The notes beneath the pieces were generated by a model, which saw only the letters and a program-made list of their open reading frames with translations, was not told the DNA's origin and did not search any database. A DNA stretch of 7,005 nucleotides from a virus, in IMG/VR virus record IMGVR_UViG_3300045988_027194, positions 1 to 7,005 of that record, one strand, 5' to 3'. Positions 1,719-7,005 of the stretch are shown here, piece after piece (the stretch's first letter is position 1; each line of letters begins with the position of its first letter). Both the position numbers and the translations under genes were made by a program.

Positions 1719-1747
1719 TTTTTACTGTTTTTATTAATTTGATTTTT

Positions 1748-2206
1748 ATGAAACAAATTGTATATTGTCCTCCACCATTTGAGGATATTCAAAATGAAAC
1801 TACTCTTTTTTCTGATTCTGTAGATGAGAATGGAAATAAGATTCCTTTGGCAGTTTCTTTTCATTCGGATTTGTCTTTGTTGATGAATATCGATAAGGCT
1901 CATTTAACTAAACGCCAATTAGAAGTCATTGAAGATGCTCTTAAACCTTGTCTTTCTTCTGATGTTCTTTCTCAGTTTGAAGATAAGTTTGGTACTGTTT
2001 CTGATGATGAGTTGCTTTCTTCTTGTCCGTCTCGTTATATTTCTACTCAGTCTGAAAAAATGCAGTATTTGAAAGACCTTGCTGTTAAAGATATTCAGGC
2101 TAAGAAAGATTTTGCTGCTAAGGCTAAGGAACAGGAAGAAAAAGATGAATATGAGCGTCAAGAGAAAGAATTAAGACAAAAATTTCTTACTCTTTTTGGT
2201 GAATAA
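1748..2206 (+). CDS. Small acidic protein (152 aa), putative internal scaffolding protein (VP3-like)
   Basis: The ATG at 1748 (context tttttATG) is preferred over the TTG at 1739. The ORF has strong T3 codon bias and an acidic, K/E-rich C-terminal helix (KEQEEKDEYERQEKELRQK). The segment SDDELLSSCPSRYISTQSE resembles, from memory, a motif seen in gokushovirus VP3 scaffold proteins. The functional call is tentative. Confidence 0.55.
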   Translation: MKQIVYCPPPFEDIQNETTLFSDSVDENGNKIPLAVSFHSDLSLLMNIDKAHLTKRQLEVIEDALKPCLSSDVLSQFEDKFGTVSDDELLSSCPSRYISTQSEKMQYLKDLAVKDIQAKKDFAAKAKEQEEKDEYERQEKELRQKFLTLFGE

Positions 2207-2212
2207 TTATTC

Positions 2213-2276
2213 GTGTTTTGCTTTGTGAGCTCTTTGTAATTCCGTATTTTTATATGTGTTTTGCTTAGAGCTCTTT
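2213..2276 (+). repeat. Two copies of an about 22-nt direct repeat (2213-2235 and 2256-2276) in the VP3-like/VP2 intergenic spacer
   Basis: The copies are gtgttttgctttgtgagctcttt and gtgttttgcttagagctcttt. They are identical except for tgt versus a in the middle. Each contains the gagctc palindrome. Confidence 0.8.
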
Positions 2277-2302
2277 TTTATAAATTTGTTTATTTATTAA
2301 TT

Positions 2303-3643
2303 ATGAGTGCTTTAAAAAATATGGCTTCGGGTGCTGCTGCTGGTAGTGCTGGTGGTGTTTGGGGTGCTGCTATTGGTGCTGGTGCTGGACTTCTTGGTTC
2401 TTTTCTTGGTGCTGGTTCGCAAAGTGCTACTAATAAAGCTAATTTACAAATAATGCGTGAACAAAACGCATTTAATGCCCATCAGGCAGAATTGCAACGT
2501 TCTTGGCAACAACAAATGCTGAATAAGTATGGTACTGCTTCTGCTCAGGCTGCCCAATATCGTGCTGCTGGCTTAAATCCTCAATTGGCAAATGTTTCTC
2601 CTCAAGCTGTTGGCACTGGTGCTACTGCTCAGGCTGGTGAATCTATTCCACAACAACCTTTGAATTATTCTGGTATTGGTTCTGCCGTTCAAAATGGTCT
2701 TCAGTATTATCAGCAACAACAAAGTATTGATAATCAAAAAGTTGTTCAATATTCAGTTGCAGCCCTTAATGAGACTCAAGGGGCTTTGAATAAGGCTTTA
2801 GAATTACAATCATATCAAAAAGTTGAAGAGAGTAAACAGACTGTTGCCAATTTAAAACTTGCTTATGATTTTAGCGCTAAAACTCTTGCAACACGTGTTC
2901 GTCAACAGTATTTGCAAGAGGATTTGTTAACATGGCAACAAAATGATATGAAATTTGGTTCTATTACTAAGATGTATGATTTGTTCAATATTAAGCCTGA
3001 AATTGTGCAAAATTTACAATCTTCTACTTTCTTTAATTTTGCGTCTGCTTTTCGTGCAGTTGCTGAAGGTAAAATGACTTTGAAAGAGATCCAATATCTA
3101 CCCAAGAAATATGCTATTATGAATACTATGGCTCTTGGTTCTTATCTTAGTGGTAAAGGTTCTTTACTTGGTGGTTTTGCATCTGTTCATAACGCTAATA
3201 CTTTAGATAGAAATACAAAACCACAGTGGCAATTAGATAATTTTACTACCGATTATTTATTAGGTAAGAAAGGTGATGAAGACGCTTTGAAATATATTAG
3301 AGGTGATGTTCGCTTAAAACATTTGTTAGACATTAATATTGCTAATAATGAGTGGTCTTTGAATAAACTTATGGAAGAGCCTTCTTTAATTCGTAATTTA
3401 GGTCGTAAGTATGCTCAAGAGGGTGCTCTACTTGAAAAAGATAACCAATCTTATTGGACTGATAAAAATATAGACCGTGGTATGAAGTTTGTTGATGCTG
3501 CTACTAAAGCTGTTGATACTTACACTGGTCTTAAGTATGTTAATAAACCAGTCAAGGAAAAGCATAACTATAAATATGATTGGAAAAATGGTAGATGGGA
3601 CCATGAAATTTCGGTTGAAACTACTCGCAGTTCTAAAAAATAA
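2303..3643 (+). CDS. DNA pilot / minor capsid protein VP2 (H-like), 446 aa
   Basis: The ATG at 2303 is preferred over the TTG at 2261. The N-terminus is Gly/Ala-rich and hydrophobic (MSALKNMASGAAAGSAGGVWGAAIGAGAGLLGSFLGAGS). It is followed by a Q/N-rich helical region containing AAGLNPQLA, the pattern typical of Microviridae VP2/pilot proteins. Size and position fit that call. Confidence 0.82.
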   Translation: MSALKNMASGAAAGSAGGVWGAAIGAGAGLLGSFLGAGSQSATNKANLQIMREQNAFNAHQAELQRSWQQQMLNKYGTASAQAAQYRAAGLNPQLANVSPQAVGTGATAQAGESIPQQPLNYSGIGSAVQNGLQYYQQQQSIDNQKVVQYSVAALNETQGALNKALELQSYQKVEESKQTVANLKLAYDFSAKTLATRVRQQYLQEDLLTWQQNDMKFGSITKMYDLFNIKPEIVQNLQSSTFFNFASAFRAVAEGKMTLKEIQYLPKKYAIMNTMALGSYLSGKGSLLGGFASVHNANTLDRNTKPQWQLDNFTTDYLLGKKGDEDALKYIRGDVRLKHLLDINIANNEWSLNKLMEEPSLIRNLGRKYAQEGALLEKDNQSYWTDKNIDRGMKFVDAATKAVDTYTGLKYVNKPVKEKHNYKYDWKNGRWDHEISVETTRSSKK

Positions 3644-3647
3644 ATTG

Positions 3648-3686
3648 ATAGGTCAACATATATGTATTATATATATGTTGACCTAT
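3648..3686 (+). terminator. Perfect 16-bp stem / 7-nt loop hairpin starting 5 nt after the VP2 stop; candidate transcription terminator
   Basis: ataggtcaacatatat (3648-3663) pairs perfectly with atatatgttgacctat (3671-3686). A T-run (ctttttattt) follows only about 15 nt downstream, so this is not a textbook intrinsic terminator. Confidence 0.45.
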
Positions 3687-3791
3687 ATATTATATATGTT
3701 CTTTTTATTTCTTCTATGTTCCAACAAATACTTATCTACTAAAAAACGAATGCACCAAAGCACTAAACGAATAAAATACTAATAATAAATG

Positions 3792-3853
3792 ATGTTTAAT
3801 ATAAAGTCTATATAAGTATTTTTCTTATAAATAAAAGACTTTTTATTAAACAT
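3792..3853. other. Long AT-rich imperfect hairpin (18-bp outer stem with 1 mismatch, plus an inner 6-bp stem)
   Basis: atgtttaatataaagtct (3792-3809) pairs with agactttttattaaacat (3836-3853) at 17/18 positions. The inner stem is tataag (3811-3816) with cttata (3824-3829). The hairpin is followed by tttgtattggtttg. Confidence 0.6.
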
Positions 3854-3968
3854 TTTGTATTGGTTTGTCTAATAGAAAAAACCTTTTAGGAAAAGTTGTT
3901 TCATTTATATTTCATTCCTCTTGTTAACTTCCTCTTTGAGAAGTCTCGCCCCTCTTGATAAGGTTGAG

Positions 3969-4001
3969 CGCAAGTGCGATATCGTAATTTCAACACTTGC
4001 G
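3969..4001. other. GC-rich stem-loop (8-bp stem, 17-nt loop) with a nested cgatatcg palindrome; candidate ssDNA origin or recognition hairpin
   Basis: cgcaagtg (3969-3976) pairs with cacttgcg (3994-4001). The loop cgatatcgtaatttcaa contains the 8-bp palindrome cgatatcg (3977-3984). This is the most GC-rich structure in the non-coding region. Confidence 0.55.
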
Positions 4002-4029
4002 TACATTGCTATTTTACTGTTGTAAATTG

Positions 4030-4041
4030 TTTCACGTGAAA
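4030..4041. repeat. Perfect 12-bp palindrome tttcacgtgaaa (CACGTG core); possible protein-binding site
   Basis: The sequence is self-complementary on direct reading. A second 10-bp palindrome, caaatatttg, lies at 4069-4078. Confidence 0.7.
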
Positions 4042-4076
4042 ACAAATGTTAAAACCACAATTTGTTAGCAAATATT

Positions 4077-4104
4077 TGTTAACATAATGTTGCTTATATG
4101 CAGA
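4077..4104 (-). other. dif-like 11-6-11 motif (candidate XerC/XerD target, putative attP)
   Basis: The minus strand reads TCTGCATATAA-GCAACA-TTATGTTAACA. E. coli dif is GGTGCGCATAA-TGTATA-TTATGTTAAAT. The XerD-side arm matches 9/11 (TTATGTTAA exact) and the XerC-side arm 7/11. The motif lies in the only large non-coding region of a genome that encodes no integrase. Confidence 0.4.
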
Positions 4105-4111
4105 TTTTGCT

Positions 4112-4119
4112 TATTTTTG
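4112..4119 (+). promoter_or_regulatory. Bacteroidota-type -7 promoter box TAnnTTTG
   Basis: tatttttg matches TAnnTTTG exactly, 59 nt upstream of the first ATG of the gene string (4178). Only a weak -33-like element (gTTG, 4089-4092) is present at suitable spacing. Confidence 0.35.
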
Positions 4120-4177
4120 CCATCGAAACCAAGCAGATAACTAAGTTTGCCGTTTCTTACTTTTTAATTTTTCTTTT

Positions 4178-4360
4178 ATGTTGAATTTTAAATTGTCTTA
4201 TGCTGATTACTCTTTATTAATTCAGTGTTTGTTGTCTCGTATGGATACTTTATCGGCTTTAATGCGTTCTGTTGCTGATTCTAATCCTAATCTTTATAAA
4301 TTTTATTGTGATGAGTTTGAGGCTGTTCATGCTCTTTATGTTAATGCCCGTAACATTTAA
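4178..4360 (+). CDS. Hypothetical small protein, 60 aa (predicted helical)
   Basis: The ATG is in ttttATG context, and T3 codon bias is as strong as in the structural genes. This is the first ORF after the non-coding region. I recognise no family. Confidence 0.65.
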   Translation: MLNFKLSYADYSLLIQCLLSRMDTLSALMRSVADSNPNLYKFYCDEFEAVHALYVNARNI

Positions 4361-4962: not shown

Positions 4963-6573
4963 ATGAAGTATTTTATATCTTGTAACAATCCTATTTTGGT
5001 AAATACTCGAAAGGGTTCTTTTTATGTTGCGTGCCATAAGTGTATCCAGTGCCAACTTACACGTAAAAATATAGATACCCTTTCTTTAGATTTGGAATCT
5101 CAGTACAATTCTAAGTATCAGGAATTTCTAACTCTTACTTTTAATGATGATTGTATTCCTTATCTCGATTTTTCATTTTTAGGTTGTGAAAGTGTAGATA
5201 CCGGCAATTTCTTTTCTGTTGATTCTGTTCTTAATTCTTATAAGTTTTCCAATAATGTTAAAAATCAGATGCCCTGTGTGCCTATTTGTTTTGGTAATCG
5301 TAAAAAAAGAATGTTTAACCCTCGGACTAAAAAATACGTTTTAGTTAAAGATAGATATTTTTCTAAACCTTTTTATAGTCCTTTTTATTCTTCTTTTTCT
5401 GTTAAAGATGTTGTTTTATATAATGATAGAGTTGAAAAATATTTTAAAAAATATCCTCGACGTTCTCGTGGTATTCGTAAACTGGGTATTGTTCCGATTC
5501 TTTGGAAAGAAGATTTACAGAGGTTCATCGACCGCCTCCGCCTCTACTTCAAAAGAATGTTTGGTGATAAAGCCACCTTTAAATATTTTGCGGTTGGCGA
5601 GTATGGAACTGAATCCCTACGTCCGCATTGGCATATTTTATTATTCCACAATTCCGATGCAATTCATAGAATTATTACGTCCTGTGACTCCGATAATAAT
5701 AACAAAAATCTTTCTAAGATTTGGCTCTACGGTAATATTTATACAGAGACCACTGACGGGCATATCTCTGACTACCTTTCGGGATATGTTAATTGCCATT
5801 CTCATCTCCCTGAAATTCTTTCGCCTTATCCACAGAAAAGATTTAAAAGTCTCTTCCTTGGAGAAGTCCGCTCGTACTCGTTTGTATCGTCTTGTCTCAA
5901 AGAAAAGCGATTTTCAGAGCTGTCAACTGTTAGCGTTATTAGTAAAAAAGGAGTTAAATCAGATGTTTCCGTTTCCTCTTCGCTTGTCAGTCGATTACTC
6001 CCAAGATATTCAGGTTATGGAGCGCAAAATGTTGATTCAGTTTATGAAACTATCTCCTGCGCTTATACGGTTTTACAGTCAACGGATTTAAATATTTATG
6101 ATGATTGTCAAATTCATGACTTTTTGTTTTTTTTAATTAAAAATCAATTTCATGGTATTTCACGTTTGGATTCTGCCTTGCGAGTTTTGCAATCTTATTG
6201 TTTAGATGTTGCTTTGCCTGCTTATTTTCGTGCTAATACCCTTAACCCTTTATATTCGTTATTTTATGCAGCTAAAAAATTGTATCGGCTTTCAGCCTTG
6301 TTTAATTTACATCCGCTTACCTACTTACGTAATGTTTTTGACTTTGTTTCGTGGTTAAATTATCAATCACTTATCTCTCATTTTAGTTTGCTTGAGATTG
6401 ATTATAATTTTGCTTATGAATATTACTCATGTATTTCTAAACATACTGGTATTTATAATTTAGACGTTTTACGTACACGTTCCCTTTTCCAACGTCAACA
6501 AATTGATGCTGCGATGTCTTGGGATTGCTGTATTAAACATAAAACCGTCTCTGATTCTTATAATGATTATTAA
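4963..6573 (+). CDS. Replication initiation protein VP4 (A-like HUH rolling-circle endonuclease), 536 aa
   Basis: The ATG at 4963 is preferred over the TTG at 4948. An N-terminal Cys cluster reads CHKCIQC. Motif 1 is FLTLTF (5125-5142). The HUH motif lies in GEYGTESLRPHWHILLFH (HWH at 5626-5634). The catalytic double-Tyr motif YLSGYVN (5773-5787) parallels the YVAKYVNK site of phiX174 protein A. Confidence 0.93.
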   Translation: MKYFISCNNPILVNTRKGSFYVACHKCIQCQLTRKNIDTLSLDLESQYNSKYQEFLTLTFNDDCIPYLDFSFLGCESVDTGNFFSVDSVLNSYKFSNNVKNQMPCVPICFGNRKKRMFNPRTKKYVLVKDRYFSKPFYSPFYSSFSVKDVVLYNDRVEKYFKKYPRRSRGIRKLGIVPILWKEDLQRFIDRLRLYFKRMFGDKATFKYFAVGEYGTESLRPHWHILLFHNSDAIHRIITSCDSDNNNKNLSKIWLYGNIYTETTDGHISDYLSGYVNCHSHLPEILSPYPQKRFKSLFLGEVRSYSFVSSCLKEKRFSELSTVSVISKKGVKSDVSVSSSLVSRLLPRYSGYGAQNVDSVYETISCAYTVLQSTDLNIYDDCQIHDFLFFLIKNQFHGISRLDSALRVLQSYCLDVALPAYFRANTLNPLYSLFYAAKKLYRLSALFNLHPLTYLRNVFDFVSWLNYQSLISHFSLLEIDYNFAYEYYSCISKHTGIYNLDVLRTRSLFQRQQIDAAMSWDCCIKHKTVSDSYNDY

Positions 6574-6583
6574 ATATTTTTTT

Positions 6584-7005
6584 ATGAAACGTTCTGATAT
6601 TGTTGGACTTCATCGTATTAAAAATAAGGTTTCTCGCAATTCGTTTGACCTTTCTCATCGACACATGTTTACCGCTCAGATTGGTGAAATTTTGCCTATT
6701 TTTTCTGAGTGGGTTAATCCTGGTGATACCTTAAAACTTGGTTATAATGGTCTTTCTCGTACTGCTCCATTGCAGACTGCTGCATTTACACGTTTAAAGG
6801 AGAATGTACAGTATTTTTTTGTCCCTTTCCAGTCTCTTTGGAAGTATTTCGAACAGGTTGTAACTAACATGACTGAGGGACAAAGTGGTGAAAATATCTC
6901 TAAGTTTGCTGCTTCTGCTTCTACTGCTGATAAACTTGGTACTTCACTTCCTTATATTGGTTATTTGGATTTGATTAAGGTTATTGATGCGCAACTTTCT
7001 GCTTG
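6584..7005 (+). CDS. Major capsid protein VP1 (F-like), N-terminal part; runs off the window end and continues at base 1
   Basis: ATG at 6584 lies 10 nt after the VP4 stop, and the frame is open to the window end. Translation: MKRSDIVGLHRIKNKVSRNSFDLSHRHMFTAQIGEILPIFSEWVNPGDTLKLGYNGLSRTAPLQTAAFTRLKENVQYFFVPFQSLWKYF... This has the typical Microviridae MCP N-terminus (FDLSH, PGD, R..P, YFFVP..LW). The frame (6584 mod 3 = 2) equals that of the 15..1718 ORF after subtracting 6950. Confidence 0.93.
   Translation, partial: MKRSDIVGLHRIKNKVSRNSFDLSHRHMFTAQIGEILPIFSEWVNPGDTLKLGYNGLSRTAPLQTAAFTRLKENVQYFFVPFQSLWKYFEQVVTNMTEGQSGENISKFAASASTADKLGTSLPYIGYLDLIKVIDAQLSA
6951..7005. repeat. Terminal redundancy copy 2 (identical to 1-55)
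   Basis: Exact 55/55 match to bases 1-55. It lies inside the open capsid reading frame that starts at 6584. Confidence 0.9.

Follow-up and report, generated by a model that had tools for sequence, protein, structure and literature searches.

The stretch of DNA analysed here (the window; 7,005 nucleotides (nt), record IMGVR_UViG_3300045988_027194 of IMG/VR) holds a gut microvirus genome that is a circle of 6,950 nt, since its positions 1-55 are repeated at 6951-7005. Its non-coding region contains a 28-nt motif at 4077-4104 that resembles the dif site of E. coli, and comparison with related phages makes it fairly probable that this motif is the phage attachment site (attP) of a microvirus that lacks an integrase, infects Bacteroidales and carries the site across its early promoter. 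An attachment (att) function of such a motif is known in kind already for Bacteroidetes microviruses (PMC3091885) and gokushoviruses (PMC7062461); the window represents a new lineage. On the plus strand the motif reads TGTTAACATAATGTTGCTTATATGCAGA, and its reverse complement, TCTGCATATAA GCAACA TTATGTTAACA, has the 11-6-11 layout of dif. With E. coli dif (GGTGCGCATAA TGTATA TTATGTTAAAT) it shares 9 of 11 positions in the XerD-side arm and 7 of 11 in the XerC-side arm. Layout and matches had been reported in a preliminary description made from the letters of the window, and we confirm both. The statement made there that no integrase or recombinase gene is present also holds: in Pfam and PHROG scans of nine open reading frames (ORFs) of the window only VP1, Rep and the pilot protein were matched, and no recombinase was.

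The att function is indicated foremost by a sister lineage that is found integrated in genomes resembling that of Segatella copri. Alignment of VP1 against 185,579 species genomes yielded two proviruses (L106 and L107), neither of them belonging to the window's own lineage. The first (CAVBFV010000077.1; VP1 43% identical to that of the window) is flanked by the direct repeat TTACCATAATACCGGTTA[T/G]AAT. At the right junction (attR) the phage sequence ...TTTCACGTGAAACATTG..., i.e., the block with the palindrome TTTCACGTGAAA, stands before this repeat and thereby ends up next to attR, and at the left junction (attL) the phage sequence AAAATAGTGATTATATTTGCACTCGAAATCAG, i.e., the TTATATTTGCACTCGAAATCAG promoter block, comes after it. 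Since the same two phage blocks flank the motif of the window, the crossover maps to 4079-4100 of the window (alignments A4 and A5). Both attL and attR were found in L106, L109, L110, L111 and the att-bounded L108, the last four of which are additional insertions at the host locus that L106 occupies, downstream of an RND efflux operon. The reconstituted attP is carried by a free circle (L176; terminal overlap of 127 nt) and the empty bacterial site (attB) by four contigs (L180-L183), where it reads ...CTATT TACCATAATACCGGTTAGAAT TAAAAAGAGG..., which completes the set of attB, attP, attL and attR for these relatives. The spacer in the sister lineage is TACCGG or TACCTG, the CCGG and CCTG variants each occurring in host and phage copies, and the XerC-like arm differs between phage and host, the two versions parting to opposite junctions, so that the exchange must have occurred in or beside the spacer. 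Related proviruses with a junction in the motif, which the preliminary description had called for, were thus found at the homologous position in the sister lineage, but none was found for the lineage of the window.

The RND pump of the host (in L109) is 86% identical to the pump of Segatella copri. As L106 shares the left flank of attL, an AAA_21 ATPase gene and an adjoining 397-aa ORF with L109, the "Lachnospiraceae" label of the metagenome-assembled genome (MAG) to which L106 was assigned probably reflects erroneous binning. On the right-hand side of attB, the Segatella copri-like genomes (L106, L109, L110, L181) carry an AAA_21/AbiEii-like ATPase, McrBC, or MutH together with a DNA methylase; this flank varies by sample, and the att site thus adjoins a variable island of defence-type genes. 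One Logan contig of genome length (L108; 6632 nt) is not a circle and was ruled out as a free genome of the sister lineage, of which L176 is the real circle: it is a provirus fragment cut at both att repeats and retains a few bases of host DNA on either side. A contig of genome length from a temperate microvirus may therefore be mistaken for a free genome. The second provirus (L107, in a Bacteroidales MAG) consists of phage DNA of 33% GC in host DNA of 50% GC and is flanked by a 34-nt direct repeat, which on the minus strand reads TTGTTTCATAA TTTATA TTATGTTAAGT and is near the Bacteroidetes dif consensus. Its two copies (8083-8116 and 14404-14437) are longer than the 28-nt dif-like site and take in the beginning of a phage ORF (ATGAAACAAAAT...). 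The att site of L107 lies between two small phage ORFs and not before the promoter, so its position differs among Bacteroidales microviruses.

The motif is also conserved among free relatives of the window. We compared 10 contigs fetched via a VP1 protein search, three microviruses from a metagenome scan and three GenBank microviruses from a distant blastn search with the non-coding region. Conservation was calculated for the part of the non-coding region that is common to 13 genomes, including the window, with VP1 proteins 63-97% identical to that of the window, plus the distant members SH-CHD8 (18%) and MG945191 (20%). The closest relatives, with VP1 identities of up to 97%, are all on contigs of ~7 kb; the runs behind the close relatives are ERR1301123, ERR1301185, SRR27430511 and ERZ1694244. 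Identity is concentrated in islands, i.e., a CACGTG block (0.87), the XerD-like arm (0.92), the spacer (0.85), the inner XerC-like arm (0.88) and a -7 box (0.90), and falls to 0.46-0.57 in the stretches between them and in the outer XerC-like arm, the bases directly next to the conserved parts of the motif having 0.46-0.54. An unchanged core TTA[A/G]CATAATGTTGCTTAT was seen in 9 of the other 12 genomes, and L101 departs from it at one spacer position. In L096 both arms and the spacer (TACACT) are degenerate, and in MG945191 the spacer is TACGCC and a 10-nt insertion displaces the motif relative to the -7 box. The conservation anticipated in the preliminary description thus extends to the majority of these genomes, but not to L096, to L099 or to a group with ~50% VP1 identity (L004-L006; see below). 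Across lineages the XerD-like arm follows the plus-strand consensus [TC]GTTAnCATAA, and the arms are retained while the spacer differs (TGTTGC, TACCGG, TACGCC), as would be expected of sites fitted to different host targets and not of a -33 box. With its conservation in relatives and its position homologous to the crossover core of the sister lineage, the motif is a credible candidate attP, as had been proposed.

A feature absent from the preliminary description is the overlap of the motif with a promoter. The consensus of Bacteroidetes promoters is TTTG at -33 and TAnnTTTG at -7. A -7 box of this type (TATTTTTG) lies just beyond the motif and, with the ensuing CGAAA, is found in almost all relatives, and at the -33 position, where the consensus has TTTG about 19-21 nt upstream, the window has only TTG (GTTG), at a spacing of 19 nt; from this promoter a transcription start would be expected near 4125. 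The -7 box and start region (TTATNTTTGCNNNCGAAANNAAG, 4111-4133) recur exactly in 85 IMG/VR contigs (L008-L092), which are mostly large contigs (30-80 kb) of gut double-stranded DNA phages and usually have TTTG ~19-21 nt upstream. Since the promoter type is shared with these gut phage contigs, the host of the window phage very probably belongs to the Bacteroidota; the host order named in the preliminary description, Bacteroidales, gains support both from the promoter type and from the Segatella copri-like host of the sister lineage. Many of the 85 contigs also carry paired CTTAA/GTTAA boxes ~55-70 nt upstream, and together with TTATNTTTGCNNNCGAAANNAAG these may represent a common promoter/leader architecture of Bacteroidales phages. 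A sigma-70 promoter was also considered, but a scan of the non-coding region for it gave results no better than shuffled sequences, and the Bacteroidetes type is the relevant one. Just 3' of the promoter lies a stem-loop (4133-4150; GCAGA/TTTGC, loop TAACTAAG) with compensatory changes in relatives (GCTGA/TCAGC, GCAAT/ATTGC, GTGAT/ATCAC, GCATT/AATGC), which could form in the 5' leader RNA or in single-stranded DNA.

By sequence statistics alone, the motif only marginally exceeds chance. Its similarity to E. coli dif proved not to be significant in itself: a match of at least 16 of 22 positions to the E. coli dif arms is reached in 16% of dinucleotide-preserving shuffles of the genome, although in only 2% when the 534-nt non-coding region is shuffled on its own. 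The dif sites predicted for Bacteroidia are heterogeneous (Kono et al. 2011). A weight matrix of the arms of 16 dif sites that Kono et al. (2011, supplementary file) predicted for Bacteroidetes ranks the motif as the top site of the genome with 12.9 bits, a score above those of the attP (11.3) and attB (10.0) of the sister lineage; it is attained in 9.6% of genome shuffles and in 1.8% of shuffles of the non-coding region. As these statistics are weak, the significance of the motif is drawn from the comparative evidence.

A metagenome scan for TTANCATAATGTTGCTTAT gave 64 matches (L112-L175). About 15 of these form an AT-rich island with homologous flanks in contigs of 70-74% GC (GAGTCTGATAA GCAACA TTATGTTAAGT), five are similar islands in contigs of 54-61% GC, and five lie between two terminator-like hairpins in contigs of 32-35% GC (TGTACAGATAA GCAACA TTATGTTAACT). 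The 19-nt core ATAAGCAACATTATGnTAA is thus identical in three unrelated bacterial groups, and the spacer GCAACA is common to distant taxa. From their shape and conservation we infer that these islands are chromosomal dif sites, in which case the window would have exactly the inner arms and spacer of functional dif sites. These organisms are not plausible hosts of the window phage; the group with 32-35% GC was considered and rejected on account of its Lsa-type ABC-F gene, which points to a Firmicute-like bacterium. In IMG/VR the exact 23-nt motif gave no match, and the 19-nt core gave three, all of them unrelated and none a hybrid attL or attR.

Several observations weigh against a functional attP in the window, in addition to the shuffle frequencies given above. 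Part of the conservation of the motif may stem from its overlap with the -33 region of a promoter that is itself conserved. The motif is absent from L099 (VP1 73% identical), where other sequence replaces it, and from a group with ~50% VP1 identity (L004-L006, i.e., PV067919, MG945894 and one IMG/VR contig), which comprises the nearest VP1 relatives in GenBank and IMG/VR and has an unrelated non-coding region. The search for proviruses of the window lineage was negative: each of the 120 closest VP1 clusters has a longest contig of at most 7.7 kb, and the metagenome scan for the core returned three free microviruses and no hybrid attL or attR. With the same database and method, 35 of 120 clusters of the sister lineage are on contigs >8 kb, 19 of those >15 kb and up to 93 kb. 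In all 10 contigs fetched via VP1 the locus is internal instead of forming an att-bounded end, and the termini of most overlap at arbitrary positions, which identifies them as circles and not as att-bounded pieces. A Bacteroidales chromosome with an attB containing the GCAACA spacer did not turn up either, the scan of species genomes having been based on VP1. Finally, the att set of the sister lineage demonstrates neither a dependence on Xer nor that its attB is the true chromosomal dif. The temperate lifestyle that the preliminary description had proposed is therefore not borne out by the 120 closest VP1 clusters, all on contigs of at most 7.7 kb, or by the metagenome scan with its exclusively free forms. 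However, gokushovirus prophages excise continually and are rarely caught (PMC7062461), so that the absence of proviruses is not decisive. Lysogeny of the window lineage is unproven.

The most serious alternative, which we regard as possible but considerably less probable than an attP, is that the conserved sequence belongs to the early promoter, as the -33 TTG and adjoining upstream sequence of a Bacteroidetes sigma-A-type promoter, or is an operator, that its dif shape is a relic or a coincidence, and that the lineage is strictly lytic. This would agree with the TTG at 4090-4092 being placed exactly 19 nt upstream of a -7 box conserved at 0.90, with the lack of any long contig among the 120 closest VP1 clusters, with the frequency (10-16%) of equal dif matches in genome shuffles, and with L099 and MG945191, which keep TTTG-19 nt-TATATTTG (TAnnTTTG) despite having lost or displaced the dif-like motif. 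Against this, conservation reaches 15 nt upstream of the -33 element and covers the whole XerD-like arm, with the inverted CATAA/TTAT symmetry kept. The sister lineage, moreover, has CGG or CTG at the -33 position instead of TTG and nevertheless keeps the arms and recombines at the site, and in MG945191 the 10-nt insertion separates the motif from the -7 box while a new TTTG serves as the -33 element, so motif and promoter are separable. A chance resemblance in AT-rich non-coding DNA, devoid of any function, might be considered in view of the same shuffle frequencies, but is very improbable for a motif that is conserved over VP1 identities of 18-97% and is homologous to an att core in use in the sister lineage.

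Two further alternatives retain a role for Xer recombination. The dif-like sites cer of ColE1 and psi of pSC101 resolve plasmid multimers and consist of a core and ~180 bp of accessory sequence to which accessory proteins bind. The motif might, in the same manner, resolve multimers of the replicative form and not serve integration; this is unlikely, though it would suit a small circular replicon that has a dif-like core and, on one side of it (3918-4075), ~150 nt of conserved, possibly accessory, sequence, as well as the lack of proviruses among the 120 closest VP1 clusters of the window lineage. Yet the homologous site of the sister lineage mediates chromosomal integration, no accessory-protein binding sites could be identified, and the rolling-circle replication of microviruses is not known to require the resolution of multimers. 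The other alternative, a folded attP as in CTX-phi, had been raised in the preliminary description on the basis of a second element resembling the XerD arm (AAATGTTAAAA, 8 of 11 positions), which indeed lies 22 nt upstream of the motif in the opposite orientation. The packaged plus strand would pair 4044-4054 with 4077-4087, and the resulting forked hairpin would be recombined with dif by XerCD as single-stranded DNA. The fold of minimum free energy does pair ATGTTA with TAACAT, and additional dif-like sites are reported for BMV4-6 (PMC3091885). The plus strand at 4030-4115, however, folds with only -9.4 kcal/mol (z = -0.83), 43 of 200 shuffled sequences folding as well; the second element is not accompanied by a XerC-like arm, and the pairing is lost in relatives together with the palindrome. 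The proviruses of the relatives, moreover, show plain duplication into attL and attR alongside free circles bearing attP, unlike the irreversible CTX type and as recombination of double-stranded DNA would be expected to produce. We therefore consider a folded attP highly improbable. The second element is kept in relatives as AAAAGTTAAA, is absent as such from the sister lineage and shows no sign of a role in recombination. A 20-nt palindrome (GTTAGCAAATATTTGTTAAC, 4063-4082) was likewise dropped, as relatives do not keep it.

If the motif is an attP, the single-stranded genome would be converted after infection into a double-stranded replicative form, on which XerC/XerD-type tyrosine recombinases of the host would bind the inverted arms TTATGTTAACA and TCTGCATATAA. 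Strand exchange would follow at either edge of the 6-nt spacer, the partner being a chromosomal site with the same inner arms and spacer, and would give a provirus between two dif-like sites in a reversible reaction. That Xer proteins are the enzymes, that the window's own site is active and that its lineage ever integrates are inferences. On one side the site has the -7 box of the promoter that serves the Rep-VP1-VP2 genes and on the other an upstream control region comprising the CACGTG box and a conserved hairpin block. Because of this position, integration would displace the control region (3918-4075) by ~6.5-7 kb, to the other end of the provirus, and the integrated promoter would face host DNA upstream. 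Xer recombination might in this way act as a lysis/lysogeny switch in a phage lacking both an integrase and any recognisable repressor, or the site might, in this lineage never seen integrated, have a non-integrative role such as cer-like resolution of the replicative form; we put this forward as speculation with little likelihood attached.

Among known systems the window is closest in kind to the Bacteroidetes microvirus proviruses BMV1-7 ("Alpavirinae"), for which dif-like att sites are described (Krupovic and Forterre 2011, PMC3091885). BMV1-7 likewise lack an integrase, have the gene order Rep-VP1-(ORF)-VP2 with a dif-like 28-mer between VP2 and Rep, and have a Bacteroidales host, and BMV1 integrates with short direct repeats, as does the sister lineage in Segatella copri-like genomes. 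The window lineage differs from BMV1, as described there, in genome size (~6.95 kb versus 6.3 kb) and in being seen only as free circles. Overlap of an att site with the -33 region of a promoter is not mentioned in the passages of that paper that were consulted. The enterobacterial gokushovirus EC6098 also combines a 28-bp phage dif motif in the non-coding region with the lack of an integrase; its double-stranded form integrates reversibly next to the host dif, in dependence on XerC/XerD and the dif motif, and its prophages are rarely detected compared with free forms (Kirchberger and Ochman 2020, PMC7062461). It belongs to another subfamily and its host to another phylum, and the dependence on XerC/XerD and on the arms is experimental in EC6098, whereas for the window it is proposed. 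Among the integrative mobile elements exploiting Xer (IMEX) of Vibrio, those of the VGJ-phi type use a double-stranded attP with XerC and XerD arms, yield plain attL and attR, and can be excised. They resemble a site of the window type in having a single dif-like attP on the replicative form, although VGJ-phi is a filamentous inovirus and the window a microvirus. CTX-phi is likewise a single-stranded DNA phage that exploits the XerCD of its host, but its attP(+) consists of two inverted dif-like sites folding in single-stranded DNA, and no such fold was found at the site of the window. The likeness to Bacteroides promoters (-33 TTTG/-7 TAnnTTTG), with TATTTTTG at 4112-4119, TTG 19 nt upstream and a CGAAA after the box that is common in gut phages, points to a second, overlapping function and offers no alternative identity for the arms of the motif.

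Microviruses of gut Bacteroidales are very abundant, almost uncultured and mostly regarded as lytic. If the motif is indeed an attP, a conserved site of the host Xer type in a widespread 7-kb lineage would imply phages that are able to persist as transient proviruses. It would also provide a handle for host prediction, since the host should then carry nnTTAACATAA-TGTTGC-TTAnnnn (TTA[ACGT]CATAATGTTGCTTA), probably at its replication terminus. To our knowledge, the resolution of chromosome dimers has hardly been studied in Bacteroidales, and the att set of the Segatella copri-associated sister lineage provides a ready system for testing Xer-dependent integration in this order. The overlap of att core and early promoter suggests a link between integration and expression; the att set in Segatella copri-like hosts, together with the separation of the promoter from its upstream control region on integration, may be more useful than the motif itself. 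The positions of the motif, its parts and the neighbouring features are given in Table 1.

Table 1. Features of the att region and genes of the window (+, plus strand; -, minus strand;., no strand assigned).
Feature	Position	Strand	Remarks
dif-like motif, 28 nt, 11-6-11, candidate attP	4077-4104	-	best dif-like site in the genome; conserved
XerD-like arm TTATGTTAACA	4077-4087	-	most conserved part; mean identity 0.92 (13 genomes)
Central 6-nt spacer GCAACA (plus strand TGTTGC)	4088-4093	-	identity 0.85 within the lineage
XerC-like arm TCTGCATATAA	4094-4104	-	inner TTATA (4094-4098) 0.88; outer 6 nt variable, 0.54
Stretch aligned with the crossover core of temperate relatives, TTACCATAATACCGGTTAnAAT	4079-4100	.	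alignments A4, A5
Phage sequence around the spacer (4088-4093)			...TTTCACGTGAAAACAAA..TTAACATAATGTTGC on one side, TGTTGCTTATAT..TTATTTTTGCC on the other
Partial second XerD-arm-like element AAATGTTAAAA	4044-4054	+	8/11 to XerD arm
Palindrome TTTCACGTGAAA, marking the phage arm on the left of the att core	4030-4041	.	kept in window and sister lineages
Candidate -33 element TTG (GTTG)	4090-4092	+	19 nt upstream of the -7 box, within the dif spacer
Bacteroidetes-type -7 box TATTTTTG (TAnnTTTG)	4112-4119	+	identity 0.90; heads the plus-strand gene block from 4178
Non-coding region, 534 nt	3644-4177		holds the motif
Small ORF	4178-4360	+	
Small ORF, 69 aa	4372-4581	+	
Rep/VP4	4963-6573	+	Pfam REP_ORF2-G2P, PHROG 942
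VP1	6584-1718	+	spans the circle junction; Pfam Phage_F, PHROG 514
ORF	1739-2206	+	
VP2-like pilot protein	2261-3643	+	

All genes of the window are on the plus strand, and a megablast search with the whole genome gave no match among GenBank phages. The 69-aa ORF is retained in relatives as an ORF of 69-70 aa and its N-terminus, a hydrophobic segment and then LTSC, looks like a lipoprotein signal peptide ending in a lipobox. The sequence TTATGTTAA occurs three times in the genome (275-283, 4079-4087 and 4336-4344), compared with an expectation of 0.35, and one of 200 shuffles reached three; the two copies outside the motif are in coding sequence, i.e., in VP1 and in a 60-aa ORF.

The best conserved part of the non-coding region is the block at 3918-4010, which 9 of 10 relatives share, L099 among them, and which holds a hairpin (3968-3976/3994-4002; GCGCAAGTG...CACTTGCGT) with compensatory changes, the window having G:C where others have C:G and L101 having GCACAAG/CTTGTGT. 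This block is a candidate replication origin or strand-initiation element. The non-coding region of L099 (1-860, 6954-7261) is longer and contains two additional minus-strand ORFs (67 and 87 aa); it retains the hairpin block and the promoter despite the loss of the motif. No Rfam family was found in the window, and the only, chance, microRNA-like matches fall on one AT-rich 18-bp hairpin (3648-3686), which lies immediately after the VP2 stop codon and is terminator-like in both orientations.

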